From positions 1 through 64,000 of the forward strand of contig CAWDEM010000004.1 in NCBI GenBank assembly GCA_963801355.1: a stretch of DNA of 64,000 nt, given 5' to 3'. The DNA is from Ignavibacteriota bacterium (GTDB taxonomy: Bacteria; Bacteroidota; Ignavibacteria; UBA10030; UBA6906). The translations under genes were made by a program, and so were the position numbers. Position 1 is the stretch's first letter, and the number at the start of each line of letters is the position of its first letter. Under the pieces are notes generated by a model, which worked only from the letters and a program-made list of their open reading frames with translations, was not told the origin of the DNA and did not search any database. This document shows positions 5,430 through 58,119 of this stretch, one piece after another.

Positions 5430-6818
5430 TCAATATGCGCCTCGCATTCCTCTACCATTAGCGATTAGGATGAAGGCACCGAACTCATTGCTCGTGTGCG
5501 CCGGCAGGGAACTCCCGGGACGATTGACCGGTATGGACCGCGGGGTAGCAATAGGATCACTGGAACCGGGCATTCTCACAGCGATTGCCCCACCGCCGTA
5601 GGTCCCCGTGTCCACAGGAGCTCCAAAGAAATCCTGCACATCTCTGATCTGATATCGGTCCCCTATCTTCAAAACACCCACAGGCAGAGGCACGGTGACG
5701 GAGGATGCTCCACTTCCATTGAAAACTATGATGTTGGCCCGACGAGGCTCGTATTGATCAGCATATTTGTTCGGACGGACGAACACCTCGTTGCCCGTTG
5801 TGGTAACAACATTGCCGCTCTTTGCCCGGTACGTGTTCCCGGCATTCTCAGTGACCCCCCCCCGAAAGAAATAATTGTTCGTCAGGGTCGCATTCTCCAC
5901 CCCATCACCGTTATAACCGAGCCACAGATCCGCTCGATAAAAGAAATTCGATGACCATTCGGGATTTAGATTCTTCCCCGATCCTACTTCAAAGTTTCCA
6001 TACAGCGCAATCACATTTTTGTTGTCATAAAGCGTATGTCCAAAAACCGTATTCCCAGTGAACGTTATGTCATCCAGTCTTGCAGTTGATGACCCTGCCA
6101 TGTGCACCTGAAAAATACCGAAATTGTTAAAGAAGAAACTCTCCATGATGAACTTCTTGCTGGGCGCGGCGTTCTGTCCGTAGACCCCGTATCCGTTTCG
6201 ATGCAGGGGGTCGTCTTCCCGTCCGTTGTAATACGCAAGGCATCCATAGATTTCTGCGTTCGTGGCGCCCGAGTAAGGATTCAGTGCCGTCGCACCTTCG
6301 TCGTGAATCACCAAATTGATCAGCTTCGTCCCTTCGCTTGCACCTAAGTTGATACCGGCCTCACCACGAGGGGGATTGGGATTCGACGACCTGACCTCAA
6401 AACCCCAGAACCATGTATACGCACCATTAATCCACAGGGCGATCTCGTTCGTGCCCCCGTTATCGATGATCGCCCACTCCCCAGGATACGAACGCACAAT
6501 AATCGGTGCGTTTGCCGTACCCTTCAGATAACTCCCATACAACCCGGAGTACGTACCACCGTGCAGCCAGAGCGTATCCCCAGGATGTACTACGGCAGGA
6601 TGACTCAACGCTGTCCTGAGATCCCACGGACTCGATGAACTCCCGCTACCTGTGGCGGAGCCATTCGGCGCTACGTGAAACCGTGCGCTACTTGCAGCCG
6701 TCGCCGATGCCATAATGCACAACGAGGTTACGAGCCCGATCATCACTCCACGCGCGAACAATCTAGCATCCTCTCTTGCTCCCACGTTCTCGAAATATGC
6801 ACACAGTTTTTCCCGCAT
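5430..6818 (-). CDS. Beta-helix protein, copy 3 (beta-helix domain only; no FN3 or T9SS tail)
   Basis: 462 aa ORF. 5454-6669 matches 1189-2404 at offset 4265. Own signal peptide; ends IANGRGMRGAY; start overlaps the stop of the upstream gene. Confidence 0.8.
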   Translation of the reverse strand: MREKLCAYFENVGAREDARLFARGVMIGLVTSLCIMASATAASSARFHVAPNGSATGSGSSSSPWDLRTALSHPAVVHPGDTLWLHGGTYSGLYGSYLKGTANAPIIVRSYPGEWAIIDNGGTNEIALWINGAYTWFWGFEVRSSNPNPPRGEAGINLGASEGTKLINLVIHDEGATALNPYSGATNAEIYGCLAYYNGREDDPLHRNGYGVYGQNAAPSKKFIMESFFFNNFGIFQVHMAGSSTARLDDITFTGNTVFGHTLYDNKNVIALYGNFEVGSGKNLNPEWSSNFFYRADLWLGYNGDGVENATLTNNYFFRGGVTENAGNTYRAKSGNVVTTTGNEVFVRPNKYADQYEPRRANIIVFNGSGASSVTVPLPVGVLKIGDRYQIRDVQDFFGAPVDTGTYGGGAIAVRMPGSSDPIATPRSIPVNRPGSSLPAHTSNEFGAFILIANGRGMRGAY

Positions 6819-8410: not shown

Positions 8411-8938
8411 TTACCGCTGCCGGTCTACGATTGTGAAATACGTAGTGGCAAGTATGGCTCCCGTTGTGACCCAACTCAGAATTCGATCCATATTGACACC
8501 GGATTTCGTGCCGACATAGATGAAATCTTCATGTTCCAAAGTCAGGTAACTGCGTGAGAGATTTTGAATATCACTGAAATCCAACTTCAGCTTCCTTGGC
8601 TCGCCCGTTTTTCCGCCTCCTGCCCCACGATTAATCTGCACATCTTCAAGGTCCGCCATCTCCGTCCACCCGCCGGCGAGAGCAAAGAGGCTCAGCAGGT
8701 CGATTGACCGGGATATTTCGTAACGTCCAGGTTGTCGGACGGCACCTATGAGGTTCACAATGATGGTCAGCTCGCCTGCATCTGCAAATCGATAATTCGC
8801 GACTTTTTCCCCTTGCATCTGCTGTGTTCCGAGATCGAGTTGCCCGTATACAGTGGAAACGGAGCTGAGCAGGACGAGAGCGCTACCGATGGCAATGACC
8901 CGGCTATTCAGCCGTTTGGGTCGCCGCGTCTTTTCCAT
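8411..8938 (-). CDS. SLBB-domain polysaccharide export-associated protein (Wza-like)
   Basis: Signal peptide; VNLIGAVRQPGRYEI...LLSLFALAGG SLBB motif; overlaps the end of wzc. Confidence 0.75.
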   Translation of the reverse strand: MEKTRRPKRLNSRVIAIGSALVLLSSVSTVYGQLDLGTQQMQGEKVANYRFADAGELTIIVNLIGAVRQPGRYEISRSIDLLSLFALAGGWTEMADLEDVQINRGAGGGKTGEPRKLKLDFSDIQNLSRSYLTLEHEDFIYVGTKSGVNMDRILSWVTTGAILATTYFTIVDRQR

Positions 8939-11258
8939 TCCTTCCCTTTCCGGATGTGTAGTAGTTGTGGCGCGAATCATAGTGACCATACCGGTAACTC
9001 CCGTAGTAGCCGCCATAGGCCAATTTGGGATTGAATTTGTTGAGGACAAGACCTAGTATTCGTCCACCAACAGAGGCCAGAAGATCCACCGAACGCTCCA
9101 ACGCGTCAAACCTCGTCATGCCTGCGGTAACCGTCAGGATGGTCCCGTCTGCTATCGCTGCAAGGCTAGCGCCGTCATTGACAACAAGGACGGGAGGCGC
9201 ATCAATAAGAACCCAATCGTAGTTTGCCCGGACTTCCTTCAGAAATTCCGTCATGGTCTCCCCCCCGAAGACGTGAGAGGGAGCCTGCAGCGGAGTACCC
9301 GCCGCAAGGATGTCCAGATGCGGAACCACGTTTCGACAAACGGCCTCCTCGAAGCTCAAGTCCTTCAGGAGGACGTCTGACAAGCCTTGACCTGGTTCGA
9401 GTCCGAAAAGTGTGTGGACGAAGGGGCGGCGCAGGTCGGCATCAATGAGAAGAACGCGTTTCTGCGTCTCTGACAATGACAAGGCAAGATTGCTGATTGT
9501 CGTGCTTTTACCTTCTGAAGGGTTTGGGCTGGATATGACAATGACTTTCATCGGGTGGCTGAGATGCAGCCACAGCAGAGCGGAGCGCAGCCTTCGGTAC
9601 GACTCCGCCACAAATGAGAGTGGATTGAAAATCAACCACAAGCGTTTGTCAAACTGCCTCGCCATGTCGGGAAGAGACTTGTTCTTCTCCAACATTTTCA
9701 ACTCTTGATCCATCGTGGCTACTTCAACAAGCGGTACGTAGCCCCGCCGTTTGAGTTGCTCGGGAGAATGGATGCGGATATCCACCCTGTCCCTCAGGAC
9801 AACAAGACCGACACCTAGGGCCAGACCCACAGTCAAGCCAATCAGAAGATTGTTCACGAGATCGGGGCTGACTGGACGCGCCGGTGGTTCGGCTTCATCG
9901 AGCAGAATCACATTCCCAAATTCTGATTTCTCCGCGATCGCCGACTCGTTGTATTTCTCTTCAATGAGCGTGTACAGTTTCTCTGAGCTGACACGTTCCC
10001 GCTGAAGTCTCGCTAGAGCGAGGTTTTGCTGTGGCAGCGACTGGAATTGCCGTTCATATGAAGCGATAATACCGTTTAGCGTGGACTGCTGCGAACGAAG
10101 CCCATCCAACTGGATCCGGGTTTCAAGAAGCTGCTGATTGAGCGCGCGGAGATTTCCGACGGGGTCAGACTGATTTGATGACGGGGATCCGGAAATAAGT
10201 CCCTGAACAACCTCGCTCGTTCTGGCCTGAAGTTTTGTACGGAGAGACGATATCTGTTCGTTGATGTCATTGAGCCGTTTCCGGCTGATATCCTGCCCAA
10301 GAGTCGCTGGATCGTTTTGTGCAACTATCACATCGCGTTGCACTTCAAGACGAGCCAACTGCTCCTGCAGCAACTTGATGTACGAGTCATTGGCCTGCCC
10401 AACCGAACTCGCAATAGCCACACCGCGTTCCGGAAGTTCTTTTTGAATCGAGAGAATCTTTCTGTCCAAGCTTTCAATTTCGATGCTCAGCGCATTACGC
10501 TTTGCCTCCAGGGTCGCGACTTCTTGCACCACTCGGTCGGTTTCACCGCCTAGGGAGACCACCCCAGTCGCTTTCATATAGTCCTTCATGGAGCCTTCCG
10601 CCCTGCTCAGTTGTTCACGCTGTTCGCTGAGCCGCCCCTCCAGGAACTCCCGTACGGACCGAGATCTGGAACGGCTTTGCTCCATGATCTGTTCTTTGTA
10701 GACGCGTGCAAAGGTGTTGGCGAGAATTGCAGCTGCGCGCGGGTCGGTGTCGTATGCAGTAATCTTTATGATATCGGAATCTTTCTCTGGCAGAAAACGA
10801 ACGTTTTTCTGGGCTCTTTGGCTGATGATCTTCACGGTGGCGAGGGTTGTATCCTCGGGACTCTCGGGGGAACGAAGGATAATGGGGAGGACTTCCGTGC
10901 GAGTGGAGTTGGAGTAGCGGATTTGAATCAGTGACTCAGCAACCTTGCGCGCCAGCACCCGCGTTTTCAGAACGGCCAACTCATTGGCAAGTTTCTCATC
11001 CCCACGATCTGCCGCCTCCGAAAATGGGTTAGTGATCTGTCCTGCTTTCTGGTTGATGAGTACCGTCGCAACGGCTTCATAAGCTGGAAGAGTGTTGAGG
11101 GTTTTAACCAACATCGCCGCAATCAACAGGATTGTGACCGCACTGATGACCCAGCGTCCCCGAGTGAGCAAAGCCAAATACTCGCGAACTCGTGTTCCCG
11201 AATGATCTTCGGCGTCAATGAGAGAATCTTCGAGACTCATACTCCCCCTTTTGCTCAC
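8904..11258 (-). CDS. wzc: Polysaccharide co-polymerase / tyrosine autokinase (Wzc/GumC family)
   Basis: Two TM helices flanking a coiled coil; ESYRRLRS; Walker A SPNPSEGKST; LLIDADLRRP; IDAPP; C-terminal Tyr cluster YGGYYGSYRYGHY. Confidence 0.93.
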   Translation of the reverse strand: MSKRGSMSLEDSLIDAEDHSGTRVREYLALLTRGRWVISAVTILLIAAMLVKTLNTLPAYEAVATVLINQKAGQITNPFSEAADRGDEKLANELAVLKTRVLARKVAESLIQIRYSNSTRTEVLPIILRSPESPEDTTLATVKIISQRAQKNVRFLPEKDSDIIKITAYDTDPRAAAILANTFARVYKEQIMEQSRSRSRSVREFLEGRLSEQREQLSRAEGSMKDYMKATGVVSLGGETDRVVQEVATLEAKRNALSIEIESLDRKILSIQKELPERGVAIASSVGQANDSYIKLLQEQLARLEVQRDVIVAQNDPATLGQDISRKRLNDINEQISSLRTKLQARTSEVVQGLISGSPSSNQSDPVGNLRALNQQLLETRIQLDGLRSQQSTLNGIIASYERQFQSLPQQNLALARLQRERVSSEKLYTLIEEKYNESAIAEKSEFGNVILLDEAEPPARPVSPDLVNNLLIGLTVGLALGVGLVVLRDRVDIRIHSPEQLKRRGYVPLVEVATMDQELKMLEKNKSLPDMARQFDKRLWLIFNPLSFVAESYRRLRSALLWLHLSHPMKVIVISSPNPSEGKSTTISNLALSLSETQKRVLLIDADLRRPFVHTLFGLEPGQGLSDVLLKDLSFEEAVCRNVVPHLDILAAGTPLQAPSHVFGGETMTEFLKEVRANYDWVLIDAPPVLVVNDGASLAAIADGTILTVTAGMTRFDALERSVDLLASVGGRILGLVLNKFNPKLAYGGYYGSYRYGHYDSRHNYYTSGKGRNGKDAATQTAE

Positions 11259-11705: not shown

Positions 11706-12799
11706 CTACCTCACGACCATCATCTTTTGCACGTCCGTTTTCTGCTCCGTCACCAAGCGGTAGAAGTATATCGCCTGATGCAAGGCCTGCCGCATCGAAC
11801 TTCACCACATAGTATCGGCCTGCTTCCGCTGTTCCCTCAAACAGCGTTGTCACCTCTGCACCCAACAGGTTGTACACCTTCAGCACCGCTCTCCCTGTCA
11901 TCTCCACCGAGAACTTGAGCTGTGTACTCGGATTGAACGGATTCGGATAGTTCTGCAACAGCTGGAACATCTCGCGGCGCCACTTCCGCCACATCCGTCA
12001 CTGTCACTTGCACAATCACACTCTGCGTGTAGTGGATCGTCCCATCCATGTCCTGCTGCTTCAACCGGTAGCTGTACGTCCCCGCCTTCGCTATGCTCTT
12101 GTCCACATAGCTGTACGCCTGCGGCTCGACCGTCGTCCCCTTGCCTGCGATGAATGCATCCTTCAGGTCCGCAAAGCTTGCTTCATCCGTCCCCTGCCGC
12201 TGTACCGTGTACCCATAGTTGTTCACTTCGCTCGCCGTCTTCCACTCCAGCACCACGCCCCCCTTGCTCGCGTTGGCACTTCCCGTAAACGACGTCAACG
12301 TCACCGGCAGCGGGAGGTCCGTGCTCTCCTGGTAGAACAACAGTGAGTAATTCGTATAGTCTCCCGAGCCCGTTTCGAAGTACCAGTCGCCACTCCCGCC
12401 GGGGGGATTTTTCAGTGTAAATGTAGTCAATCCCGATCCCGTGACGCCCACCGTGAACAGCTCGTTTTCACTGTTCAGTGCCCAGGTAATGGTGGTATTC
12501 GGTGTCGACCCGAATTTCTGGTAGCTGTTCAATCCATCGGTCCCTATCCCTCCCTGCGTGGTGATGCCGTACGCAGAGCTTATGCTTCCCAGGCTGATTC
12601 CTGATGCTGTCGGCCAATACACCGTCACGATTACATTGGACCACAGTGTACTGGTGATCCCCAGATTGTACACCTTCGCCTTTACTGAAAGTGTATTGGA
12701 ACCGTTGGCGAAGATTCCGGCACTTACCCTCGGTTGGGCCCAAGAGAGCGCCACCCCCAGAACAATGAGTATCGTCAGCATCCACGCAATCTTTTTCAT
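11706..12799 (-). CDS. Secreted cohesin-like beta-sandwich + LPVTL Ig-like domain + T9SS CTD protein, copy A (apparent frameshifts near 11975 and 11770)
   Basis: Signal peptide MKKIAW...SWAQ; ~140 aa all-beta N-domain (SNVIVTVYWP, ELFTVGVTG); LPVTLTSF...LEWKTASE domain; NYPNPFNP tail in a shifted frame ending KMMVVR; AAAGGAG RBS. The cohesin call is inference. Confidence 0.65.
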
Positions 12800-12823
12800 T
12801 GAGTAGGCTCCTTTACTATGTAC

Positions 12824-15574
12824 TTAGTTCGGCACCTGCGTTAATTTTGTGGCCGTGATATCCGTACCACCGATATTCGTCAGAATGATCAACCGGTCAT
12901 TGTTCGCCCCCGAGTACTTGACCTGGCCGTTCAAGTTCACATCCTCAGTGTAGTAGCCGCTCACTGTTGCAGTGATGTCGGTCCCTCCTATACGGGTCAA
13001 GATCGGAAGCCGGTCATTCCCCCCACCACTATACTTGATCTGACCGTTTCCTGTCACATCTCCTGCATACATACCGTATATACCCGTTGTCACCTCCACC
13101 ATGGGAGCCACGCCGTAGGCCATGCCAGCAGCCCTGAAATCAGCCAATCCGTTAACCGGGGTCAACCCAAAGTGATTCGCACTCATTACTGCCAGATGAT
13201 TTCGATGTCTGAGCACAATGTAGTAGAGCCCCTCCTCAACCCCCACAAATGCCACAGGACTCAGACCATCAAGGTCGACAATGGATCCATCCCTCTTTAC
13301 GAAAGCAGCCCGTATCGCAATTGTGCTCGACGCCGCCGTGCCCGTACGCAGTTGCACCATTACCCAGTCGACAACGTCTACAGGGATGCTTGTCACCGAT
13401 TCCGTCCCGGAATAGTTCCATGGGGCAACGTTGTACGGTTGGCTCAATGGAATCAATCCCGCCGTGTTCAGTGCTGTCGACATCATCCCAGCAGAGTACG
13501 GACCCTGCAGCAAGACCCGCGCATTGCAGCTAACCGGACTGCTGCGGAATTCAGCACGAACGGCAATATCCATGGACGCCAAATTGCTGAAAGTTGTGCC
13601 ATTCGTTGAATAGTATGAATTTCCGGTGGCCGGAAGGGTAATGTCAACAGGAACTGTATATCCGCTTGACGCTCTCTGGAAGACAATTCTCACGTAAACG
13701 GGTACGTTTTGTGTTACATCAAGTGCAGGTGAGAAATTCAACTGTACGAAGCTAGTTATTCCCGGTGAAGCTCCCACGGCTGGACTACCCAATTGCCCTG
13801 ATAACGTATTTGAGGTAAAATTGGCAAACGCAGTTGCAGTAATGTTTGTATACCAACCCTCAAAACTGAACACCCTCAGGCCCACAAGCTTACCTGAAAA
13901 AGCAGGAGTACATCTAACCATCGCGTACCCAGTACTTGATCCTAGACCAGTGAACCAACCACTGAATGTTCTATAGAACTGCAGAGGATAGCCATAATAC
14001 GTCGGGAGAACAGCCGTGGCTGTCATAGTAGCTGCAGATGCGGAGATGCTGGTTATTTCAACACCGCTTGAATTCGTGTTCCAGAGCCTTGAGTTAGGTG
14101 TTGATGTTTGAGTCAAAGATGTATTACCTGTTGAACCAGGATAAGGATCTCCAGCATCGCCTCTGTTTGTATTTCCTGCCATTTGCTCCAAACCGTCAGC
14201 CTCATAAACCTTAACACCCAAATGCGTATTGGTTACATTTACTTCATTTGAAGCTGGCCAGATATCAGTCAGATTCTTGTCTACATGATAAATCAACAAG
14301 CCTGAGGCCGGCAAATTGAGATCAAATCCGGTCTGTTGTCTGTTCTCAACGAGCATATACTCATCGGACTTGTTGTTGTCCATCCAGATTTTGTAAGAAA
14401 ATGAATTTGTTTCAGCCCGAGGAATGCTCAATGCCTGACTTGACGCTACGACAGTTGGGTTCGTATATCCCAGAAGTTCTTTGCAGTAAGCAGACATGTG
14501 TGAAGGTCTTTCGGGAGTATATCCATTTCCGCCCCAACTTCCACCGGCCATCAAACACCAGTTACCTACACCTTGAGAACTACCATTTGAAGCGCCATCT
14601 GTATCGTAAAGATCAGGTAATCCGAGCATGTGTCCGTATTCGTGGCAAAACACTCCGATATCAACGTGGTTTGACCCGTACATTTCCGGCATGATAATAT
14701 ACGTGTTTATGGTTTTCCCGTCGTAGGCCCTCGAATACGACGGGTCCAGACCACCACTATGGGACCAAATATACTGTGTCTGGCTGCCTTCTTCGGCGCC
14801 TTTGCCGGAATGAACTATGAAAAGTCCGTCGACAGTACCGTCGAGATCGTTATCGTAAAGCGAGAAATCAACTCCGTTTGCTTCTGCTGCATCAACACAT
14901 TGACTTACAAGTTCCTGTACATGTGTCCAGAAATCTGCATTGCTATATGCATAATAGGACGATGGCTGTGCAGCGGTAATCCAATCCTTATAGTCCGCCT
15001 GTATCGAAACAGTGTTATATGATACGTCCTTATAGTACTTGCTCATGCCACCGATCCCGCCTTTCCAACTATCATTGTTTACCATATCTTGAAAACTCAC
15101 ACTCGTTTGAGTCGCAACGAGATCCGAATACTGCACACACAAAATGAGGACATGCATTGCCACATTTTGTGGTTGCTTCAATCCCTGAATACTTTTGTGA
15201 GGAGTGTTTTCATCAATATGCTTCTCCGCGCGGAAAGCCTGTTGCTTTTCGGCGATCACTTGTTGTGACTCTGTCAGATGCTTGGGGATACTCATCATCG
15301 TTTGATTCTGGGGCACTTTGCTGCCGCCCTGCACTTTGAACGCACTGGGAATGAACCTGCCTTCGGGACTTAGTGTCGCATAGTACCAGTACTCATCGCT
15401 CCCTCTGATTACGACGTAGCCGTCCAGGGTCTCAGCATAGTTGTAGCGTTCATCGCCAAAGCCCACCACGCTGAAGGTTGTTCCGTCAGGCTGTGAGACA
15501 ACCGTGGGCGTGTGCTTTGCCGGCATTGAGAAAACGGAAGCACCGACGAGCATCATGAGCAGCAGTTCTTTCAT
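12824..15574 (-). CDS. M6 family (immune inhibitor A-like) metalloprotease with C-terminal HRNHL/dockerin-like module
   Basis: QPDG...GDE propeptide; DFSLYDNDLDG; HEYGHMLGLPDLYD; WCLMAGGSW; EYMLVENRQ. C-terminus VLLQGPY...RHRNHL...GDVTGNG...EDVNLNG. No NYPNP tail. Confidence 0.9.
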   Translation of the reverse strand: MKELLLMMLVGASVFSMPAKHTPTVVSQPDGTTFSVVGFGDERYNYAETLDGYVVIRGSDEYWYYATLSPEGRFIPSAFKVQGGSKVPQNQTMMSIPKHLTESQQVIAEKQQAFRAEKHIDENTPHKSIQGLKQPQNVAMHVLILCVQYSDLVATQTSVSFQDMVNNDSWKGGIGGMSKYYKDVSYNTVSIQADYKDWITAAQPSSYYAYSNADFWTHVQELVSQCVDAAEANGVDFSLYDNDLDGTVDGLFIVHSGKGAEEGSQTQYIWSHSGGLDPSYSRAYDGKTINTYIIMPEMYGSNHVDIGVFCHEYGHMLGLPDLYDTDGASNGSSQGVGNWCLMAGGSWGGNGYTPERPSHMSAYCKELLGYTNPTVVASSQALSIPRAETNSFSYKIWMDNNKSDEYMLVENRQQTGFDLNLPASGLLIYHVDKNLTDIWPASNEVNVTNTHLGVKVYEADGLEQMAGNTNRGDAGDPYPGSTGNTSLTQTSTPNSRLWNTNSSGVEITSISASAATMTATAVLPTYYGYPLQFYRTFSGWFTGLGSSTGYAMVRCTPAFSGKLVGLRVFSFEGWYTNITATAFANFTSNTLSGQLGSPAVGASPGITSFVQLNFSPALDVTQNVPVYVRIVFQRASSGYTVPVDITLPATGNSYYSTNGTTFSNLASMDIAVRAEFRSSPVSCNARVLLQGPYSAGMMSTALNTAGLIPLSQPYNVAPWNYSGTESVTSIPVDVVDWVMVQLRTGTAASSTIAIRAAFVKRDGSIVDLDGLSPVAFVGVEEGLYYIVLRHRNHLAVMSANHFGLTPVNGLADFRAAGMAYGVAPMVEVTTGIYGMYAGDVTGNGQIKYSGGGNDRLPILTRIGGTDITATVSGYYTEDVNLNGQVKYSGANNDRLIILTNIGGTDITATKLTQVPN

Positions 15575-15654
15575 ACCAGTCTCCTTCTGATCTTGTGCAC
15601 TTCCGGGTCTGACGCGGGCACTGGTCCGCATTCCACCAAGGTAAGCTTGGCGGG

Positions 15655-15683
15655 AATATACCTGAGTGATCGCATGATGTCAA
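15655..15683 (-). promoter_or_regulatory. Sigma70-type promoter of the M6 protease/cohesin-like pair
   Basis: Minus strand TTGACA-17 nt-TATATT, about 80 bp upstream of the MKELLL start. Confidence 0.75.
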
Positions 15684-16082
15684 CAGGAGAAGGGCGGACA
15701 ATCTTGTACGGAAAATCTTGTACTGAAAACCTTGAAGGAAAACTGGAAATCGTCGTGTAGGAATATTCCTACATGGTACACGCGTCAGAAGAGGCGCGTT
15801 CACTCCTTTCTTGGACCAGTTCCAAGCCCCCTTCACTCCCTCAGAAGTCCCAAGATCACACCGTCCCCTGGCTCCAAACCAACAAGGCCCGGTGTGCATC
15901 CCGAGCCTGCTTCGTGCAAAGTCACGTGTGAACGATTGCGAATAATGAACCCAGACCAGCCTGGCATTCGTGGTTCTCGCCTCTCGCGAGACCACAGGCA
16001 ATCGAGTCAAGGTGTTCAATACTCAGAGAGGCGAAACCCTCCAGCCGCCATTCGGCAGTACTTGTTGATTTGTCTCTGCGCT

Positions 16083-17177
16083 TCACCGGACTAGCATCAT
16101 CTTCTGCACGTCGGTCTTCTGCTCCGTCACCAGGCGGTAGAAGTAGATCCCTGATGCAAGACCGGCGGCATCGAACGTCGCCACATAGTACCGGCCTGCT
16201 TCTGCAGTGCCCTCAAACAGCGTCGCCACCTCTGCACCCAAGCAGTGTTGTACACCTTCAGCACCGCTCTCCCTGTCGTCTCCACCGAGAACTTCAGCTG
16301 TGTACTCGGGTTGAAGGGATTCGGATAGTTCTGCATGAGCTGGAACACCTCTCGGTGCCACCTCCGCCACATCCGTCACCGTCACCTGCACGATCACACT
16401 CTGCGTGTAGTGGATCGTCCCGTCCAGTCCTGCTGCTTCAACCGGTAGCTGTACGTCCCTGCCTTCGCTATGCTCTTGTCCACATAGCTGTACGCCTGCG
16501 GCTCGACCGTCGTCCCCTTGCCTGCGATGAATGCATCCTTCAGGTCCGCAAAGCTTACTTCATCCGTCCGCCTTCCGCTGTACCGTGTACCCATAGTTGT
16601 TCACTTCGCTCGCCGTCTTCCACTCCAGCACCACGCCCCCCTTGCTTGCGTTGGCACTTCCCGTAAACGACGTCAACGTCACCGGCAGCGGGAGGTCTGT
16701 GCTCTCCTGGTAGAACAACAGTGAGTAATTCGTATAGTCTCCCGAGCCCGTTTCGAAGTACCAGTCGCCACTCCCGCCGGGGGGATTTTTCAGTGTAAAT
16801 GTAGTCAATCCCGATCCCGTGACGCCCACCGTGAACAGCTCGTTTTCACTGTTCAGTGCCCAGGTAATGGTGGTATTCGGTGTCGACCCGAATTTCTGGT
16901 AGCTGTTCAATCCATCGGTCCCTATCCCTCCCTGCGTGGTGATGCCGTACGCAGAGCTTATGCTTCCCAGGCTGATTCCTGATGCTGTCGGCCAATACAC
17001 CGTCACGATTACATTGGACCACAGTGTACTGGTGATCCCCAGATTGTACACCTTCGCCTTTACTGAAAGTGTATTGGAACCGTTGGCGAAGATTCCGGCA
17101 CTTACCCTCGGTTGGGCCCAAGAGAGCGCCACCCCCAAAACAATGAGTATCGTCAGCATCCACGCAATCTTTTTCAT
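16083..17177 (-). CDS. Secreted cohesin-like + Ig-like + T9SS CTD protein, copy B (several apparent frameshifts)
   Basis: First ~200 aa identical to copy A; pieces of the CTD (NYPNPFNP...YFYRL...KMMLVR) lie in shifted frames at 16083-16594. Confidence 0.65.
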
Positions 17178-17201
17178 TGAGTAGGCTCCTTTACTATGTA
17201 C

Positions 17202-20200
17202 TTAGTTCGGCACCTGCGTTAATTTTGTGGCCGTGATATCCGTACCACCGATATTCGTCAGAATGATCAACCGGTCATTGTTCGCCCCCGAGTACTTGAC
17301 CTGGCCGTTCAAGTTCACATCCTCAGTGTAGTAGCCGCTCACTGTTGCAGTGATGTCGGTCCCTCCTATACGGGTCAAGATCGGAAGCCGGTCATTCCCC
17401 CCACCACTATACTTGATCTGACCGTTTCCTGTCACATCTCCTGCCCAGAGGCCGTACACGCCGGTGGTGAGCTCCTTCGCGTCTCCACCATAGTACTTGT
17501 CTAAACCCGTCGTGAAATCGTACTGCGCACTGTTCACGTTGATCGCGACCGGGGCCGCACTCATCACCGCCAGATGATTGCGGTGACGCAGAACCACGTA
17601 ATAGTTACCAGTCGCCACCGATGGGAAGCTAACCGCGCTCGTCCCGTCAAGATCCACTACCGAACCATTGCTCTTAATGAACGCTGCGCGTGTGGCGACC
17701 TTCGTTCCTGATGCTGTGCCCGTACGCAGCTCCAACAGTACCCAGTCCACAACGCCGATCGGAATGCCCGCTACCGACTCCGTGCCGGAGTAGTTCCAGG
17801 GGGAGGGCGTGAACGGCTGCGTGACTGGAATGTAACCACCCGCCCGCAGAGCCGTTGACATCACACCACCCGAATAGGGGCCATCGAGGAAGGCCTTAAC
17901 CTCCACGGTTTGCGGAAGTGCTATACCGGTCCAGTGGAACTGTTGCTGGTAGCTGTTGTCAGACTCGCTGAATTCCTCCACCCCATTTTCCGCATCCACA
18001 ACGGTCTTTAGAATATGGTCGCCCGCAGGAACAACATAAGCAAAATCAGAAACGTAGGAATAGGTCTGTGCACCGAGCCCTGAGGAGTGATTAATGATGA
18101 GTATCGGTGAATCGTCAAGGTAAAGATACGTCGTGAAAGGTGTGGTGATATTGGAGGTTGTCAGGTTGGCGACTGCAACGTCAAGATACGTTGTCGCACC
18201 GCCCGTCAGGGCACCCACAGTTGTGGTTCCCGTAACGGATGAAGGCACGATTGGGGCATCCCACCCTTGTGGCGTGTACGTTGCTACCAGATTGAAGGGA
18301 TTGCTGGTGATCCCGTGCCGACTGAACGCGGCCGTGATCTGCGTGTAGTGTGGCGTGCCATTGGCCAGGTCCCCGTCGTCATCATCTGCAAGAAGAAGAT
18401 CCACATAAAGTTCTTGGTGTGAATCAGCATTGAGGAGCATGGCAGCCATGAACAGTTGGTCGGCAATCAGTGCATTCCCGATATTTGTTCGCATGTCCCA
18501 CAACGCACCGCTGGATGGTCCGGCATTGTGATGCAAATATCCCCAGTCATTCCAGGGCATGGCAGGATCCCACCAGGGGAGCACCCAATAGGTGTCACTG
18601 AGCCCTAGCCCATTGGAATAGTCGGAACTGCTGAGAATCTGTTGATTGTCGTACCTTCTGGGATTCGACCCCTGGTCCAGGTTTCTCCATGCGAGACCGA
18701 TGAGGGGATGATTGTTCATCGTTGCTGCCACGTAGTCGGAAAAACCTTCGCTCATCCCGCTCTCATCCGGCCCGCTATCGGCGACTCCATACGCCTTGTC
18801 CTGAATGCTGTGCCCGTACTCATGATAGAGCACATCGCTTTCCCGGGCCCATTCGACTGTCAGTCCGAACGTGTTCGATGGGAAATGGATCTCGTCTGAG
18901 TTGGGGAAATAGCAGGGCCCATTGTCGTCAACGCCGGAATCATTCGCATAGACCGTCATCTGAAAATCCATCCCTGTATACCCCAGTTGGTCGGATACAT
19001 AGGTGTGGATCCGGTCAGCATGATAATACAGACTTGTGATAATATCGCCGTTGACGGTAAGAGATCCATCCAGCGAACCTAATGGATTCGGGCCTAGACT
19101 GAGCAACCAAACCAGCACATTCTCTCCAGAAGATCCACCATTGCGATCCACGACCTTTGCCCACGTCCCTTCTGTGTTTGCCTCGACGTAATGGATGTCG
19201 GAGGTAGAGGCAAACGTCGAACTTGAAAATTGTCCGTTTGCATCGGTGGTTATCGGCCCCTCAATCCTTGTGGTACCCTTGCGTATGTACGTGTAGGCGT
19301 TGGGAAGCGGGCTGATGACGGGACTGCTGTCGTAGAACTGGGGATACTGTTGGCCGCTCATTGTTCCCGAAACATCAAATTGCGAATCGTACCAGTAGAA
19401 ACTTTGCGTGTACTCATTGTCTGTCTCATCCGATTCAACAATATCGTTTCTCGAATCCGCGAGGATCTTGAGAGTGTGCCACCCACTCGACAGAGTTTGC
19501 ACGTAGTCCTGAATAGACGCATAGTAGTTCGCCAGGAGTGAGTTACTGTACCACTCTGCCACGGGAGTGTCGTCAATGGAGAGCAGGTAAAAGAAGGTGC
19601 TCACAATATCCTGCGAGCTGTTGTTGGCAACCGCCCAGTCGATATACGTGCTCTGTCCGGCATAGAGACTGTTGCTCGTGTTGGTTCCTGCCACCGATGA
19701 GGCAACAATGGGAGCATCCCAACCGGTGGGTGTGTAGGGTGTCAGGTTCGGAAGGGAGCTTTCGGCAGTCAGAGAGATAGTGTCGAGGAACACGCCGTCG
19801 TATGGATCCCCGGAAACACTCCCGTCGCTGTCAAATCTGAACTGGATGTAGAGACCCGTCTGCCCCGCAAAAGCGTCCAGATTCAGTTCAATGTATTCCC
19901 AGGCGAGAGGATCGCTCATTCCGCTCTGTGAGTAAATCAGATGCCACGCCCCGCTCTGGTCACGCACATTCACAGTGAATTGATCGAAGCTCGCTTCGGT
20001 GTCGACAATCTTATAGAACGACAGTGTTGCGCTGGCGCAGCCCGCAAGACTAACTCCCCGTCGTTCCATGTATACCTTGAGATTGTCGGGATAATAGTAT
20101 TGGCCCCCTGATGGATCGGTATAGCAGTGCGCATAGCCGTACGCCCAGGCCCAGGAATAGGATCCGGAGCCCCCGTCGTGACCTATGCTCCATTCACCGG

Positions 20201-21368
20201 GATACGAGCTGCTGAAATCGTCGTAGAAAATAGTCGTGGAGGCCGGGGCTGCTGGCCCCGGCTTCGCGGAAGACCTGCGAAAAGCCGAATTGTCACTTTG
20301 AGGCAATGGTGGCGGGCCTTTCTTTCCGGACACCACCGATGTGTCCCGACGGTCGTCTACCGGACAGGATGTTGTGTGAACGGACAGGATGGTCGCAGCC
20401 GTATTCGTGCGACCCTGGCTCTCTGTGATTTGACGCGGCTTAGCAGAAACCGGTATCGCAATACGTGATAACGGCCTGGTGCTATCCGGAGGCGTGGTGC
20501 CAAGATTACCCACGGAGTTGTATTCCTGAGAAGGGTAAGCACTCATCTCATTAATAAGCAACGGCTCCCCCTTTAACACTTCTCCCGAAGTGGCATCCAC
20601 AAACGCTCTCATAAAAGGTTTCGTCACATCAACTGCAAGGTCAATTGTCCAGGCTAGTCTGTATTCGAACGCGGTTTCTGTGGGCTTCGGGAACACAACC
20701 AACGAGCCTGTTCCAAGTTGGACTAGACCCGACTTCCGTTTCGGATCCTTTTCCTGGAACCGGAGAGCACTTTCGAAAGCATCCCGTTCAGAGAGCCGCG
20801 GGACAACGGAGATTTCTCCCACCGGAAAATGCTGCAGAGAGACGGAGAGGATTTCGCCTCGATTGGACAAGAGCACCTTCATCATTCCTGAATGAACCGG
20901 GATTCCGCGGTACACCTGTTGATAGGATTGAAACAATTTTGTGTTGAGTCTCTGCTTTTTCTCCAGCTGAAAATCCGCGGTTTGAATATTGAAGAGGTCT
21001 TTCTGCCCAGCAAGAAAATTGTCAACGATCTGTTCCGAACTCAAATCCGATGGCTCCGAATGGAATCCATACAGCCTCTTGACGTTACCCAGCTTCTGGT
21101 CCCACTCGATCCTCCAATGTCCGTTATAACGGTCATTAAACTGCTTGAACGCTTGGATCCGGTTCGACGGCAACTTGATGGCTTCTCGAGTGATCGGAGC
21201 CACTTTGGGAACCACGGTTTGACTTCTGGAGGGCCGATCTCGTTCATCTCCCTTTCCCCTAGCATCCTGGGCTTGCGCTGTGCCCTGTACGACTCCGCTC
21301 AAGGCGAGCAGAACAGCAAGAGAAAAAAAGAAGGACGCTCGTGAGATCACAGCCTTCCTTTTCCTCAT
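17202..21368 (-). CDS. M4/M36-like gluzincin metalloprotease with FTP/PepSY propeptide, two CARDB-like repeats and C-terminal dockerin-like module
   Basis: YQQVYRGIPV (FTP); AFVDATSGEVL (PepSY); DVLYHEYGH...GMSEGFSDY; two YTPxGWDAPIV repeats; same C-terminal module as the M6 gene. Start at MRKRKA preferred (ORF is open to 21533). Confidence 0.85.
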   Translation of the reverse strand: MRKRKAVISRASFFFSLAVLLALSGVVQGTAQAQDARGKGDERDRPSRSQTVVPKVAPITREAIKLPSNRIQAFKQFNDRYNGHWRIEWDQKLGNVKRLYGFHSEPSDLSSEQIVDNFLAGQKDLFNIQTADFQLEKKQRLNTKLFQSYQQVYRGIPVHSGMMKVLLSNRGEILSVSLQHFPVGEISVVPRLSERDAFESALRFQEKDPKRKSGLVQLGTGSLVVFPKPTETAFEYRLAWTIDLAVDVTKPFMRAFVDATSGEVLKGEPLLINEMSAYPSQEYNSVGNLGTTPPDSTRPLSRIAIPVSAKPRQITESQGRTNTAATILSVHTTSCPVDDRRDTSVVSGKKGPPPLPQSDNSAFRRSSAKPGPAAPASTTIFYDDFSSSYPGEWSIGHDGGSGSYSWAWAYGYAHCYTDPSGGQYYYPDNLKVYMERRGVSLAGCASATLSFYKIVDTEASFDQFTVNVRDQSGAWHLIYSQSGMSDPLAWEYIELNLDAFAGQTGLYIQFRFDSDGSVSGDPYDGVFLDTISLTAESSLPNLTPYTPTGWDAPIVASSVAGTNTSNSLYAGQSTYIDWAVANNSSQDIVSTFFYLLSIDDTPVAEWYSNSLLANYYASIQDYVQTLSSGWHTLKILADSRNDIVESDETDNEYTQSFYWYDSQFDVSGTMSGQQYPQFYDSSPVISPLPNAYTYIRKGTTRIEGPITTDANGQFSSSTFASTSDIHYVEANTEGTWAKVVDRNGGSSGENVLVWLLSLGPNPLGSLDGSLTVNGDIITSLYYHADRIHTYVSDQLGYTGMDFQMTVYANDSGVDDNGPCYFPNSDEIHFPSNTFGLTVEWARESDVLYHEYGHSIQDKAYGVADSGPDESGMSEGFSDYVAATMNNHPLIGLAWRNLDQGSNPRRYDNQQILSSSDYSNGLGLSDTYWVLPWWDPAMPWNDWGYLHHNAGPSSGALWDMRTNIGNALIADQLFMAAMLLNADSHQELYVDLLLADDDDGDLANGTPHYTQITAAFSRHGITSNPFNLVATYTPQGWDAPIVPSSVTGTTTVGALTGGATTYLDVAVANLTTSNITTPFTTYLYLDDSPILIINHSSGLGAQTYSYVSDFAYVVPAGDHILKTVVDAENGVEEFSESDNSYQQQFHWTGIALPQTVEVKAFLDGPYSGGVMSTALRAGGYIPVTQPFTPSPWNYSGTESVAGIPIGVVDWVLLELRTGTASGTKVATRAAFIKSNGSVVDLDGTSAVSFPSVATGNYYVVLRHRNHLAVMSAAPVAINVNSAQYDFTTGLDKYYGGDAKELTTGVYGLWAGDVTGNGQIKYSGGGNDRLPILTRIGGTDITATVSGYYTEDVNLNGQVKYSGANNDRLIILTNIGGTDITATKLTQVPN

Positions 21369-25002: not shown

Positions 25003-26144
25003 ATGACATTTCTCGTTCTCGGCGCCGGCATGATGGGAAGCGCGGTTGCATACGATCTCGCCAAAGCTTCACCATCATACAGGTGTTTCTGGCCGATATC
25101 TCAATCAGGTCGCGCAACGTGTCGCACAATCCATCGGCCCCAGTGTGACGCCGATGCAACTGGATGTGCACGACGCGTCGCGGTCGTCCGGGCGATGCCG
25201 GGAAAGGCAGTGGTCGTCAGCGCGGTCTCCTACTCGGTGAATGAGGAACTCACGCTTGCCGCTATTCATGCGGGCGTGCATTTCTGCGATCTCGGCGGCA
25301 ATAACGACGTTGTCGACCGACAGCTGACAATGGATCCAGCAGCCCATGCGCGCGGTGTTACGGTTGTACCGAATTGTGGCCTTGCCCCGGGACTGATCAA
25401 TATCCTGGCCGTCACCGGCATGCGAAAAAGTTCGACAGCGTCGATAGCATCCAGTTACGTGTCGGCGGACTTCCGCAACATCCCCGCCCGCCACTCAATT
25501 ATGAGATCGTCTTCTCCGCAGAAGGCCTGTTGAATGAGTACCTCGAACAGGCAGAAGTGATCGAAGATGGGGATCTTAAGACTGTGGAATCCATGACCGG
25601 ACTCGAATCAATCGCGTTTCCTCCCCCGTTCGGCACTATGGAAGCTTTCCATACGTCGGGCGGCATTTCAACGCTTACCCGGATGCTTCAGGGAAAAGTG
25701 CGCAATCTCGACTACAAGACTATCCGTTACCCGGGACACTGTGAGAAGTTCAAGACCCTTCTGGATCTGGGCTTTGCAGGTGCCGAACCGGTGATGATCG
25801 GACAGAACGTCACGACTACACGGGAATTCTTCACCGAACTGCTGAAACGGAAGCTCTCGACCGGAGACAAAGACCTGGTTCTCGCTCGCGCAACACTCAC
25901 CGGCACCGCCGCAGGAACCCCGCGAACGCTTGTGTATGAGTGCGTGGATTATTATGATGAATCAACACAGATCACCGCTATGATGCGCACAACGGCATTC
26001 CCGACCTCGATCACGGCGCGTATGCTGGCTGAGGGAATGATCACCCGCCGTGGCGTTATGCCCCCCGAAGCGTGTGTGCCGGGCGAACCGATGATCAAGG
26101 AACTTGCACAGCGGGGCGTGAATATCAGCACAATTACCAATTGA
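25003..26144 (+). CDS. Saccharopine/lysine dehydrogenase family oxidoreductase (apparent frameshifts)
   Basis: VLGAGMMG Rossmann motif; FCDLGGN; NCGLAPG; VGGLPQHP; YKTIRYPGH; TAMMRTTAF, spread over two to three frames. Confidence 0.85.
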
Positions 26145-26375: not shown

Positions 26376-28092
26376 GCATTATGGGAAGTGTCATTGCGAG
26401 CGATGCCCTGAGGAGGCGAGCGAAGCAATCTCATACGTCAATGCTTAGTCGAGTGTGGGATTGCTTCGGCCCTTGGGGCCTCGCAATGACGGTCGTGACC
26501 ATTGTTGCATTCCTCCTCATCGTCTCCACCGCCCAGGCTCAGGATAACACCATCCGCGTCGTCTTCTCCGACAATCCCGATAGCAACACCGTCATCGGCG
26601 CGTTCCGCACAAAGGGAGTTCTGTACGGTTCACTGACCGACCTGGTCCATGTACTCCAGGTGGGTTCGTACACAAACCCGACCACTCCAAGATGGAAGTG
26701 AAACATGGGCCGTACCGGGTCAAAGTGACGGGCGGCAATCCGTTTATTGTCGTGACCGACCAGGCGCAGAAACAAACCGTGTACCAGCTCTCCGCAAACG
26801 TCATGTTCGCCGCAAATACATTCTTCGTTCCGATGCAGTCGACCCTGCGATACTTCCACGTTCTCTTTGACAAGTCCGGACGCTTTGACCTGACCGTAGA
26901 TGCTCTACATCGGCATTGCACCACCGCCCACGGCATACGACATCCCCTCCGTTTCGCTCGAACCGAAGATCAACGGCATGGTTATCCGTATCGCTTCGCA
27001 AAAGCGGGTCGAAGATGTCGAAAGCTGGCTGCGACCGGATGGATGGTTCTATGTGACGATTGCGGATGTGAAGGCGGATGTCCGGAGCATCAATGCAGTC
27101 AAGGGCACGAGCATTGTCAGAAAACGTCGTGGCAATCCAGTCACCGACCTCCGTACAGTTGACCTTTAAGCTCACGGGCAAAATCGCTGCAACGGAAATC
27201 CTGCGTGAAACCGGTTCCAATGACCTGCTGCTCTCGATCCGTGTACCCGAGCCCACCGAGGAACCCGTGTCGACCGAAAAACCCGTGCCGATTGAGAAGC
27301 CGCACCCGAACCCGAACAAGAAACCGCCGCGGGATGCTTCGCCCGATCTCTCCTCACAGAGAAAGCGGTGGGAGCTGGACGTGATAGTCATCGATCCCGG
27401 TCACGGCGGAAGAGATCCCGGAACAATCGGTGTTACGGGAGTCAGGGAGAAGGATATCACGCTGGGTGTCGCACGGCGCCTCGGCCAGCTCATCAAGGCC
27501 GACCGTTCGGACCTGCGTGATGTGAAGGTCGTGTTCACACGGTCCACAGACACGTTCGTTCCGCTCTACCGGCGCCCGCAGATTGCCAATGAGTCCGGCG
27601 GCAAATTGTTCGTCAGCATACACGGCAACTCGATGGACGCAAAAGCCAAATCCGCGACGGGGATTCGAAGTGTATCTCCTGCGTCCCGGCCGGACGGAAG
27701 ACGCTATTGCCATCGCCGAACGCGAGAACGCCGTGATCGAGCTGGAAGAAGGCTACGAAGACCGGTACAAGGAACTGACGGATGAGAATTTTATACTTGT
27801 GACCATGGCACAGAGCGCATACATGCGTTCCAGCGAGCATCTGGCGGGACTTGTGCAGAAACAGATGACGGACGTGGCGGGACTTCGTAACAACGGTGTG
27901 AAACAGGCAGGTTTTTATGTGCTCGTCGGGGCTGCGATGCCGAACATTCTTGTGGAGACGGGGTTCCTTTCAAACCGGAGGATGAGAAGTTCATCAAGAG
28001 CGCCGCCGGGCCAGCAGAAAGTGGCAGAAGCACTTTACCGCGCGATCCGGAAATACAAGACAGAATACGAGAAGCTGCTGGCGAATGAGTAG
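26372..28092 (+). CDS. N-acetylmuramoyl-L-alanine amidase (Amidase_3); several apparent frameshifts
   Basis: VIVIDPGHGGRDPG; EKDITL; FVSIHGN; AERENAVI; VKQAGFYVL..AAMPNILVETGFLSN. Confidence 0.88.
26390..26490. repeat. Palindromic REP/RPE-like element within or at the start of the amidase gene
   Basis: GTCATTGCGAG...GAAGCAATC...GATTGCTTC...CTCGCAATGAC. Confidence 0.85.
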
Positions 28093-28289: not shown

Positions 28290-29661
28290 ATGATGAGGCT
28301 GAGGAGATTTTGCATCTTTGTCGCTATTCTCACGATTGCAGCCGCTTCCTTCGGTCAGACGCGCTTCCGTTCGGGAATATTCCTCCATCATTCAACGGGC
28401 GCCTGCATCTGGGGACCAAACGGCGGACAGGTTTCCGTACCGACGGAAATTGCCAAATACAATCTGTCGCACGGTCATGTTGGGCTCCGATTCTGTGAAA
28501 ATGAGTCGAAACCTGGTGGCCTTCGGCTGACAACGAATGGACGACATGGCACAACATCTTTGACAACGGGATGCAGTCAAACGACATCCGGCCGTTCCTC
28601 GCCTCCTATCCCATGATCATGATCAAGTCCTGTTTCCCTTCGTCCCAGATGTCCGGTCCTGGCTCGAGCGCTGATACACTCAGTCCGACGATCAAGAGTA
28701 TCGCAAACTACAAGTGGCATTGGCGTTCGTTGATCTCCGTAATGAAGGGACGGCCACAAAACTTCTTTGTCATCTGGACTAACGCTCCCTGGTGGCAGGT
28801 GTCACGAATGCTTCTCAGGCAGCCCTCTCCAATGCATTCTGCCGCTGGGCGAAGGACACCCTTGCCGCCGGTCTCGACCCCATCGTCGGGACATTCCCAA
28901 AGAATATTTTCGTCTTTGATTTCTTCCATCTTCTCGCCGGCGCTGACGGCATGCTCCCGCTGCAGCTCGCGAGCGGATCAACTGACAGTCACCCCAATGC
29001 AGCCGCGACAACATTGGTGGCCCCTCAACTGGTGAAGCAGGTGTTTGACGCTGCGCTGGCATACGAATCCACCACGACCGCCACTGTTCCCGGAGTGATT
29101 CCGCTGACAACGCCCGTCAACGGTGCGAGGGTTTCAAGCGACACCGTCAAGTGTGTTTGGGGAGCATCCCCCTCCTCGTGGGACTGGTTTGAAATCTCAA
29201 CGGATTCCTTGTTTGTCTCTTCCACGTCCGTCGATTCCACGGTGATGAGCTGCACTAAGGTGGTCCGCAATCTTCGGAACAACACGCCGTATTACTGGCG
29301 TGTGCGCGGCGGTAATCTTGCAGGTTGGGGTCCATTCGGCGAACGGCGCATGTTTACCGTATCGTATACTGCAGTACGCGATCAGTACGGGATCCCCCCC
29401 ACCTTCGCGCTGAACCAGAACTACCCGAATCCGTTCAACCCATCGACGCAGATTGAATTTGGCATCCCCAAGGAAACCCGCGTGAAGCTAGAGGTGTATA
29501 ATGTTCTCGGGGCACGGGTGCTGACATTGGAGGACCGCATTATGTCCGCTGGGTATCACAGCGTTACAGTGCAGGCCGGTTCGCTTCCGAGCGGGCTCTA
29601 CGTGTACCGCTTGACAACCCGGGATATCTCACTCACCCGGAAGATGTTGTTGATGAAATAG
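28290..29661 (+). CDS. Secreted SGNH-like domain + FN3-like + T9SS CTD protein (apparent frameshifts near 28480 and 28795)
   Basis: Signal peptide; GIFLHHSTG, MIKSCFP, FDFFHLLA and DSHPN motifs; shared FN3 module; NQNYPNPFNP tail. Confidence 0.7.
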
Positions 29662-56765: not shown

Positions 56766-56792
56766 TCGATCCGGTCCAATGCCACCGGTACT

Positions 56793-57618: not shown

Positions 57619-57627
57619 TCCCCCGGT

Positions 57628-58119
57628 ATGCGCCGCAATCTCATACTCATCGCCCTCTCGCTGCTCATCCTGCTGGTGCAAACGCTCATCATCCCGCAAA
57701 TCGCCATCCTGAGCATCGTGCCCGATCTGTTGCTGATCTGGATAGTCTACGTCGCGCTTACCAGGGGCCAGATAACGGCTATGACCGTCGGGTTTTTTCT
57801 GGGTGTCCTGGTCGACATACTCTCCGGCGGTGACAACATGCTGGGGTTGTCGGCGCTGACGAAGACTGTCGCCGGATTTCTTGCGGGATATTCATATAAC
57901 GAGAACAAGATCGCACCGTTTCTGAGCGGCCCGCAATTTCCCCTCGTGCTCATTGTCGTCTCTCTTGTGCACAATCTCCTCTATTTTCTTATCTTTCTGC
58001 AGGGATCCGACCTTTCCTGGAAAACGACAATTCTCCAGTTCGGCCTGCCCGCAACGCTCTACACGGTGGCCATCGCGGTGATCCCGATGTTTGCGTTTGC
58101 CCGACATTATCGAACCTGA
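57628..58119 (+). CDS. mreD: Rod shape-determining protein MreD
   Basis: PDLLLI; GFFLGVLVD; synteny. Confidence 0.9.
   Translation: MRRNLILIALSLLILLVQTLIIPQIAILSIVPDLLLIWIVYVALTRGQITAMTVGFFLGVLVDILSGGDNMLGLSALTKTVAGFLAGYSYNENKIAPFLSGPQFPLVLIVVSLVHNLLYFLIFLQGSDLSWKTTILQFGLPATLYTVAIAVIPMFAFARHYRT

Follow-up and report, generated by a model that had tools for sequence, protein, structure and literature searches.

We examined a window of 64,000 nt from an Ignavibacteriota bacterium (assembly GCA_963801355.1, contig CAWDEM010000004.1, positions 1 to 64,000), in which two metalloprotease genes are each followed by a gene for a small partner protein. On balance, and with some reserve, we lean towards reading these pairs as two bicistronic units, each made of a cargo and its anchor, of a divergent cohesin-dockerin-type system in which surface display depends on a type IX secretion system (T9SS) C-terminal domain (CTD) supplied in trans. 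Each protease would be exported by Sec to the periplasm without a T9SS CTD of its own, and would end in an X-module-like domain carrying the motif HRNHL and a dockerin-derived duplicated segment. The N-terminal domain (N-domain) of the partner, a protein of about 363 aa, is predicted to be cohesin-shaped and would be the socket for this tail, while the Ig-like spacer and type-A CTD of the partner would lead to its export through the T9SS and its anchoring on the outer surface by the surface-anchoring chemistry of such CTDs. The protease would then be displayed on the cell non-covalently. That the tail binds the N-domain, that calcium is involved and where the two proteins meet are points that we infer.

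All cargo and partner genes of the two units lie on the minus strand. In order of transcription, metalloprotease 2 (17202..21368) is followed by a 24-nt spacer (17178..17201), partner gene B (16083..17177), about 450 nt, an M6 metalloprotease (12824..15574), a second 24-nt spacer (12800..12823) and partner gene A (11706..12799). The two spacers are identical and carry AAAGGAG on the coding strand, which confirms the 24-bp gap and ribosome binding site (RBS) given in a preliminary description of this DNA. That description also spoke of two unrelated metalloproteases, one of family M6 and one M4/M36-like; the first assignment stands, and the second does so only tentatively.

The M6 protease, recovered in our searches as P0216 (916 aa), scores 213.5 bits with TIGR03296 against a cut-off of 110.8, matches Pfam Peptidase_M6 at E 1.6e-21 and the PDB entry for InhA, 4yu5, at E 9.7e-13, and has HEYGH at residue 330 of an open reading frame (ORF) that is open to 15631. 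Its catalytic domain is placed at about 14285..15139. Its predicted identity as an InhA-like M6 protease is solid. Metalloprotease 2 has HEYGH at ORF residue 904 (18810..18824), reaches 16.7 bits with Pfam Peptidase_M36 (cut-off 23.3) and has no PDB sequence match. An FTP propeptide motif at about 20838..20930 falls just under its cut-off (20.7 bits against 21), and two CARDB stretches are likewise below cut-off (domain at about 19407..19685, E 2.1e-12). We treat it as M36/M4-like on a tentative basis. Its ORF is open to 21533, with a likely start (MRKRKAV) at the ATG at 21368, from which it has a signal-peptide-like N-terminus; signal peptides were assigned by eye throughout.

Neither protease matches the T9SS CTD model PF18962, in keeping with the earlier statement that they lack a T9SS tail. 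The same model is matched by four other proteins of the window (1..2505, 2716..5268, 28792..29661 and 36880..39183), and the organism therefore uses type-A CTDs. NCBIfam contains families of ordinary T9SS cargo proteases, and these give weak matches: NF038113, 'T9SS-dependent M36', for metalloprotease 2 (E 1.8e-4, score 19.8 against a cut-off of 885) and NF052323, 'T9SS-dependent M6-like', for the M6 protease (E 9.6e-16, 56.9 against 600). Such proteases belong to the same clans and occur in T9SS-bearing phyla, and they carry the CTD in cis, whereas in the window the CTD is on the downstream partner.

The best evidence that tail and N-domain belong together comes from the way in which they vary. 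The tails of the two proteases are 62% identical across about 280 aligned columns, and, as previously noticed, every residue is the same from AGDVTGNG to the end, a stretch of about 80 aa. At the DNA level, the two units agree base for base from the first dockerin codon onwards, past the stop codon and the 24-nt spacer and on into the small gene. The homogenised tract, 12193..13075, matches 16571..17453 at 874 of 883 bases, and its longest stretch without a mismatch measures 439 nt. It takes in the dockerin-like segment and the spacer as well as the signal peptide, the N-domain and the start of the Ig-like domain of the partner. Just upstream of the tract, agreement falls to 65 bases in 125 and 209 in 340 (52-61%). 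Between the partner copies, the proportion of synonymous sites that differ (pS) climbs along the gene, with values of 0.017 for the N-domain, 0.13 for the Ig-like domain and 0.34 for the CTD. By these alignments, the tract is the product of recent gene conversion or homogenisation between the copies.

A comparison with an orthologue tells of a similar exchange. P0069 is 85% identical (769/909) to the window M6 protease up to MYAGDVT, after which it continues into a different, short-loop dockerin. P0026, presumed to come from the same genome as P0069, matches the window partner only from residue 120 on, at 62%; it has the Ig-like domain and CTD in common with the window partner, and its N-domain is of a second type. 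Long-loop tails like those of the window are found together with window-type partners in three presumed same-genome sets: P0217/P0073 with P0005, P0221 with P0018, and P0077 with P0010, the last two proteins presumed to lie on one 6,304-nt contig. These comparisons support the exchange of dockerin and N-domain together as one cassette, and it is this apparent joint exchange that argues best for their pairing.

The tail has two parts. The HRNHL module, of about 150 aa, lies at 13064..13540 in the M6 protease (motif at 13193..13207) and at 17442..17918 in metalloprotease 2 (motif at 17571..17585), where it is delimited by alignment with the M6 tail and matched by the profile of its relatives at E 2e-75. 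It has no match in Pfam (E up to 10), in NCBIfam or, by sequence, in the PDB. From its position before a dockerin, it recalls what we take to be the X-module of X-dockerin (X-Doc) dyads. The dockerin-like duplicated segments follow at 12827..13063 and 17205..17441 and are 100% identical to each other. Each has two repeats of the type D-x-[TN]-x-N-G-Q-[IV]-K-Y-S-G-x-x-N-D, each then followed by a helix-like stretch; the repeats are identical at 25 of 32 positions (E 9e-17), marking an internal duplication.

The preliminary description had called these repeats dockerin-like, and profile comparison bears this out. When a profile of 100 window-type tails was compared by hhalign with one of 50 short-loop tails, of the kind that includes Pfam-positive dockerins, the probability was 99.3% (E 3.9e-20, 73 columns). 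Four relatives with the HRNHL module (P0150, P0265, P0286 and P0168) reach 24.9-27.9 bits with Pfam Dockerin_1, against a cut-off of 22.9, exactly where the window proteins have the duplicated segment. Window-type tails form a long-loop subtype (K-Y-S-G-x-x-N-D) with a 4-residue insertion in each loop, giving 16 residues instead of 12, and keep the D/N residues at loop positions 1, 3 and 5 and the terminal N-D, as judged by inspection. The end of the tail is, on this evidence, a true but divergent, dockerin-derived relative of the dockerins.

This tail is widespread. A 238-aa tail query searched against 1.84 billion representatives, with clusters taken at 50% identity, returned 10,583 clusters at E<=1e-3, of which 1,976 were at E<=1e-30. 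In 143 of the best 150 of these 10,583 matches, the protein ends 21-125 aa after the HRNHL module, and in the other 7 it runs longer; a CTD motif is present in one of the 150, and PF18962 in 1 of the best 120 relatives. The cargoes are diverse and include C1A, M6, M4, S8 and C10 peptidases, metallophosphatases, GDSL esterases, beta-helix lyases, deacetylases and a phytase. Among the best 120 relatives, Pfam Dockerin_1 is found in 4 and Pfam Cohesin in 4. A Pfam cohesin and the same HRNHL-dockerin tail occur in one protein in P0252, P0133, P0271 and P0162, each confirmed individually, and a cohesin match is present in 4 of the 26 aligned members of the window-type-tail set. Judging by this build, such proteins look like adaptors that could chain units of this kind. 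Four proteins of about 400 aa, P0070, P0080, P0085 and P0086, were named by eye from their aligned N-termini as candidates for the same cohesin-and-tail arrangement.

The proposed socket is the N-domain of the partner (12296..12736 in copy A, about 16674..17114 in copy B, where the profile match has E 1.7e-62). Modelled alone, it is a beta-sandwich with a predicted local distance difference test score (pLDDT) of 95.9 and a predicted template modelling score (pTM) of 0.90. In a Foldseek search, cohesins made up 27 of the 36 PDB matches listed, with probability 0.97-1.00, E 5.6e-5 to 1.7e-3 and template modelling (TM) scores of 0.31-0.55. The OlpC cohesin-dockerin complex 4dh2 is among these fold matches. 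Non-cellulosomal C. perfringens glycoside hydrolase modules (2jh2, 2vo8 and 2w1n) and the Archaeoglobus cohesin 2xdh are among the fold matches of this model or of a larger, two-domain one. The two-domain model, of 275 aa (pLDDT 89.6), has a signal helix and two beta-sandwiches and, of all PDB entries, matches the cohesin-FN3 tandem 2w1n best (E 1.8e-7), with generic two-sandwich proteins scoring similarly. An Atlas search provided a lead only, at rank 7 with a score of 0.89 and with Cohesin on 13% of members, and a viral fold library yielded nothing informative. A CnaA/CLIPPER stalk domain was considered for the N-domain and dropped, with one PDB match against 27 for cohesins and no Pfam DUF11.

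These models make the N-domain a moderate and not a close match to cohesins, probably cohesin-like in fold but without demonstrable membership of that family. The earlier identification of this domain as a cohesin has therefore kept its structural half, as the 27 of 36 matches listed indicate, and found no support for its other half, since no sequence method detects a cohesin. Across the 55 N-domains found in the architecture of N-domain, Ig-like domain and CTD, 22 are of the window type, 26 of the second type, 3 of a third type and 4 are singletons. Second-type N-domains weakly match Pfam-type cohesins by profile (73.5%, E 3e-5), and the third type gives 52%. The Ig-like domain of the partner (LPV.L.SF ... 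W.T.SE.NN.G[YF] ... YRLKQ.D.DG) is a generic pre-CTD module of very different T9SS proteins, from 110 to 2,399 aa, carried by metagenome-assembled genomes (MAGs) of Ignavibacteriota, Calditrichota and Bacteroidota.

A cargo gene followed by a partner gene was also expected in other genomes, and this is found in places. At least 60 loci (L001-L060) were fetched, chosen by the partner's common CTD pattern QN[YW]PNPFN or its Ig-like domain and not by the tail; they mostly have only the Ig-like SEVNNYG pre-CTD domain in common, and a window-type N-domain is present in none of them. Two of the eight tail genes in these loci have a partner-type neighbour. In L003, a tail gene for a protein of 1,292 aa, quite unlike the window cargoes in length, is followed after 62 nt by a gene for 392 aa with N-domain, Ig-like domain and CTD, the dockerin being short-loop and the N-domain of the second type. 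L055 has a 406-aa gene of this build, with a singleton N-domain, 114 nt behind a tail gene. The linkage of cargo and partner is not general.

Several results weigh against the pairing that we favour. First, the similarity of the N-domain to cohesins is limited: TM scores to cohesins are only about 0.5, with root mean square deviations of 5-6 Å, the top PDB rank goes to a CnaA-like CLIPPER domain, and the matches listed include several CBM3c modules. Pfam, cohesin PF00963 included, does not match the N-domain of the window or of its homologues at E up to 10, PDB searches with the N-domain by phmmer and by profile return no match, and hhalign against 10 Pfam-positive cohesins of the same protein set gives 0.3%. 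Second, Dockerin_1 matches none of 26 window-type tails (E up to 1) and does not match the window tail itself at E up to 10; a PDB profile search with the tail has one match, to the dockerin 4uyp_B, at no better than E 8.4. Calcium binding is not to be assumed, because each loop has 16 rather than 12 residues. Third, that P0069 and P0026 are neighbours, like the members of the other matched pairs, is only a presumption. Fourth, among the 8 tail genes in the fetched loci, 5 lack a same-strand neighbour of at least 100 aa within 600 nt downstream and one more runs off its contig, and the 10,583 clusters of the tail family stand against 65 proteins found with the partner query. Fifth, both partner genes are frame-broken as assembled, and the same extra G stands just before the CTD in both copies (APR|G|MFQL in A, APR|G|VFQL in B), with differing flanks. 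A complex prediction of the N-domain with tail residues 148-238 and two calcium ions, run without controls, scored 0.21 and 0.29 where the mark is 0.32, and speaks neither for nor against the pairing.

The tail family dwarfs the partner family and most tail genes lack a partner beside them; therefore, many cargoes must use partners encoded elsewhere, as in cellulosomes. It could be argued that the window cargoes do the same: the docking site of the tail would be, for instance, a multi-cohesin scaffoldin or an adaptor from another part of the genome, or else a surface glycan, and the partner would be an independent T9SS surface protein travelling along. The proteins that join a Pfam cohesin to the same tail make a network with distant partners plausible, and nothing in the sequence of the window-type N-domain marks it as a cohesin. 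We nevertheless think this account rather unlikely for the window units, as dockerin and N-domain are swapped as one in both the conversion tract and the orthologue comparison, the breakpoints falling at module edges, and the 24-nt spacing with RBS in both copies, plus recurrence in L003 and L055, argues for a functional pair. A smaller point in the same direction is that the window-type N-domain is known only in the architecture of about 365 aa and appears in none of 1,206 longer candidates, which is weak evidence.

The broken frames of the partner genes bear on a different doubt, that there is one real unit and the duplication is an artefact of a mis-joined or cross-polished repeat, or else that the partners are real pseudogenes. 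When intact homologues are aligned by tblastn, partner A spans three frames (12799..11972, 11973..11773 and 11786..11709), with its signal peptide at 12737..12799, its Ig-like domain at about 11990..12304 and its CTD (11709..~11970) in the two other frames, before a stop at 11706..11708. Partner B is interrupted at alignment columns 641, 785 and 964-965, and by the extra G that it has in common with copy A at column 863 (window ~11972 in A and ~16350 in B); there are two indels in A and four in B, and the annotated partner ORFs have only 320 aa and 205 aa. In the window partners, the CTD is recognised as sub-threshold fragments (Pfam E 0.012/0.038; TIGR04183 E 9.6e-4/4e-4, the latter for partner B), and homologue residues 277-364 align to the shifted frames at 58-75% identity. 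Intact homologues have 358-371 aa and carry PF18962, which is present in all 22 full-length ones (P0002-P0023; for example, 39.8 bits in P0004 and 36.8 in P0005, cut-off 27). The small gene with signal peptide, beta domain, Ig-like domain and type-A CTD that had been described thus exists as such in the homologues, while neither window copy is one open frame and the CTD there is fragmentary and frame-shifted.

With the six indel columns dropped, both partner copies read 363 codons to a common stop. Across the Ig-like domain and CTD, copies A and B differ by 29.8 synonymous and 11.2 non-synonymous differences, with a ratio of non-synonymous to synonymous proportions (pN/pS) of 0.11, which indicates that both copies are under purifying selection in the frame defined by the homologues. 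The assembly seems to carry indel errors in other places. The gene for gamma-glutamyltranspeptidase (GGT) is split (43512..44654 / 42929..43531, minus strand; Pfam positions 2-308 then 322-511), as is that for UDP-GlcNAc 2-epimerase (48934..49743 / 48576..49148, minus strand; positions 5-165 then 180-347). Further breaks lie at 25374..26144 and 27078..28092 (plus strand), where saccharopine dehydrogenase has only its C-domain in one ORF and Amidase_3 is halved. Because housekeeping genes are split too and the partner copies differ mostly synonymously, the breaks in the partner genes are probably assembly errors and not marks of pseudogenes. The shared extra G is odd, being unexpected under random sequencing error. 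A programmed frameshift at this G was considered and dropped, as the other five indels are unshared and the assembly is error-prone.

An artefact would be in keeping with these broken housekeeping genes and with the position of the partner indels, all six of which fall where the copies are similar but not identical. We find it improbable all the same, given that the two cargoes are unrelated and their genes unbroken for 2.8 and 4.3 kb, that the pS gradient and pN/pS fit gene conversion between real, selected paralogues, and that the same architecture exists in other genomes. Lastly, secreted proteases often have dedicated partners, and this one sits tightly downstream of two different proteases, but that it is an inhibitor, chaperone or maturation factor and not an anchor is very hard to credit when the conserved and exchanged element is the non-catalytic tail and not the protease domain, when the same tail is found on phosphatases, esterases, lyases, deacetylases and phytases, when the upstream tail protein of L003 has a quite different length, and when the partner is built like a surface-anchored T9SS substrate.

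If the partner is the anchor of the protease, the two proteins have to meet before or after crossing the outer membrane. Both would first be in the periplasm, and co-export, which the preliminary description had named beside anchoring, is a live possibility for this reason. A CTD-less enzyme plugged into its CTD-bearing partner in the periplasm would be pulled through the SprA translocon, cargo C-terminus first, and then anchored, and the HRNHL-dockerin tail would mark a large class of indirect T9SS substrates. This is a bold proposal and we hold it to be unlikely as it stands. In the literature, consulted mostly as listings, no work on T9SS co-export of non-covalently bound protein passengers was found.

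There are several known systems with which the two units can be compared. One kind is the single-cohesin anchoring scaffoldins of cellulosomes, such as OlpC, OlpA and SdbA of C. thermocellum and ScaE of R. flavefaciens. Like these, the window units have a single cohesin-type beta-sandwich with a surface anchor, and a cargo or adaptor with a C-terminal duplicated dockerin. Unlike these, which are anchored by surface-layer homology (SLH) repeats or a sortase signal, the window partner has the type-A T9SS CTD of a diderm; its N-domain is not a cohesin by sequence and the dockerin loops are 4 residues longer; and its cargoes are proteases, with an anchor gene directly behind each cargo gene.

Cohesin- and dockerin-like modules outside cellulose degradation, on proteases and other enzymes, are also a point in common with non-cellulosomal pairs, of which Peer et al. 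2009 reportedly made a survey. Those pairs can be recognised from their sequence and are without coupling to the T9SS, unlike the window units. Non-cellulosomal cohesins and dockerins, including some on peptidases, are described in the part of the literature covered here (PMC6487960). In Melioribacter, which is related to the Ignavibacteria, the authors noted, in the portion of their paper that we draw on, cellulase genes without a dockerin or scaffoldin domain (PMC3534657).

One precedent is from the Fibrobacteres-Chlorobi-Bacteroidetes (FCB) group itself. For the Cloacimonadota 'Ca. Stygibacter', a CTD-bearing cohesin scaffoldin and dockerin-bearing peptidases were inferred in 2021, from genomes only according to the sections drawn on here (PMC8542988). 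As in the window, signal-peptide enzymes (there including S8 and C25 peptidases) have C-terminal dockerins and a cohesin protein bears a conserved, surface-attaching CTD, so far as those sections go (PMC8542988). The scaffoldin is described there as one protein of 3,755 aa, with tandem InterPro-recognisable cohesins and carbohydrate-binding modules (CBMs) (PMC8542988). The window, unlike this, has small one-socket proteins, Pfam-negative modules, gene-by-gene pairing with the cargo and the extra HRNHL module. Because such a scaffoldin had been inferred for Cloacimonadota, at least in the sections cited (PMC8542988), the idea of surface display by this means is not new for the FCB group. What seems new here is the small, single-socket, Pfam-negative CTD anchor that is gene-paired with its cargo; the literature, seen mostly as listings, yielded no small single-socket CTD anchors paired with cargo, no HRNHL module and no long-loop dockerin.

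The surroundings of the two units were also examined. Directly downstream of partner A, at 8411..11258 (minus strand), are genes for a Wzc-like chain-length determinant/tyrosine kinase (Wzz, GNVR, AAA_31) and an SLBB-domain (Wza-like) protein, which are part of an exopolysaccharide export locus. Further on, 1..2505, 2716..5268 and 5430..6818 (minus strand) form a tandem array of paralogues that encode large surface proteins, in which blocks of 300 nt, 100% identical, recur at a spacing of 2715 nt; the first two match PF18962, and 5430..6818 is without a Pfam match. Like the tract above, they point to recent duplication or conversion among surface-protein genes, or to trouble in assembling repeats. 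The two T9SS-CTD proteins on the plus strand, 28792..29661 and 36880..39183, have repeated units of about 285-291 nt in common; 36880..39183 matches FN3 and purple-acid-phosphatase-N domains, and 28792..29661 matched only PF18962. At 45639..46520, 50687..52408 and 55740..63624 (both strands) lie a Ser/Thr kinase, a cNMP-GAF-SpoIIE phosphatase, a MreB-MreC-PBP2-RodA cluster and a LonB-like protease, with no apparent link to the cargo-partner units. No tRNA genes were found in the window, and a promoter and terminator scan of it gave counts no higher than in shuffled sequences (11 vs 8.9; 10 vs 8.5).

If the pairing of tail and N-domain is true, it would explain how many CTD-less secreted enzymes of T9SS phyla reach the cell surface or stay on it. 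The HRNHL module and the long-loop dockerin subtype would then be two module families that current libraries miss. Matched, exchangeable cassettes of plug and socket, with at least two specificities, would be a test system for the carriage of non-covalent passengers by the T9SS. Should co-export also be true, the more than 10,000 tail clusters, almost never with a CTD, would be unrecognised indirect T9SS substrates in Ignavibacteriota, Bacteroidota and Calditrichota.

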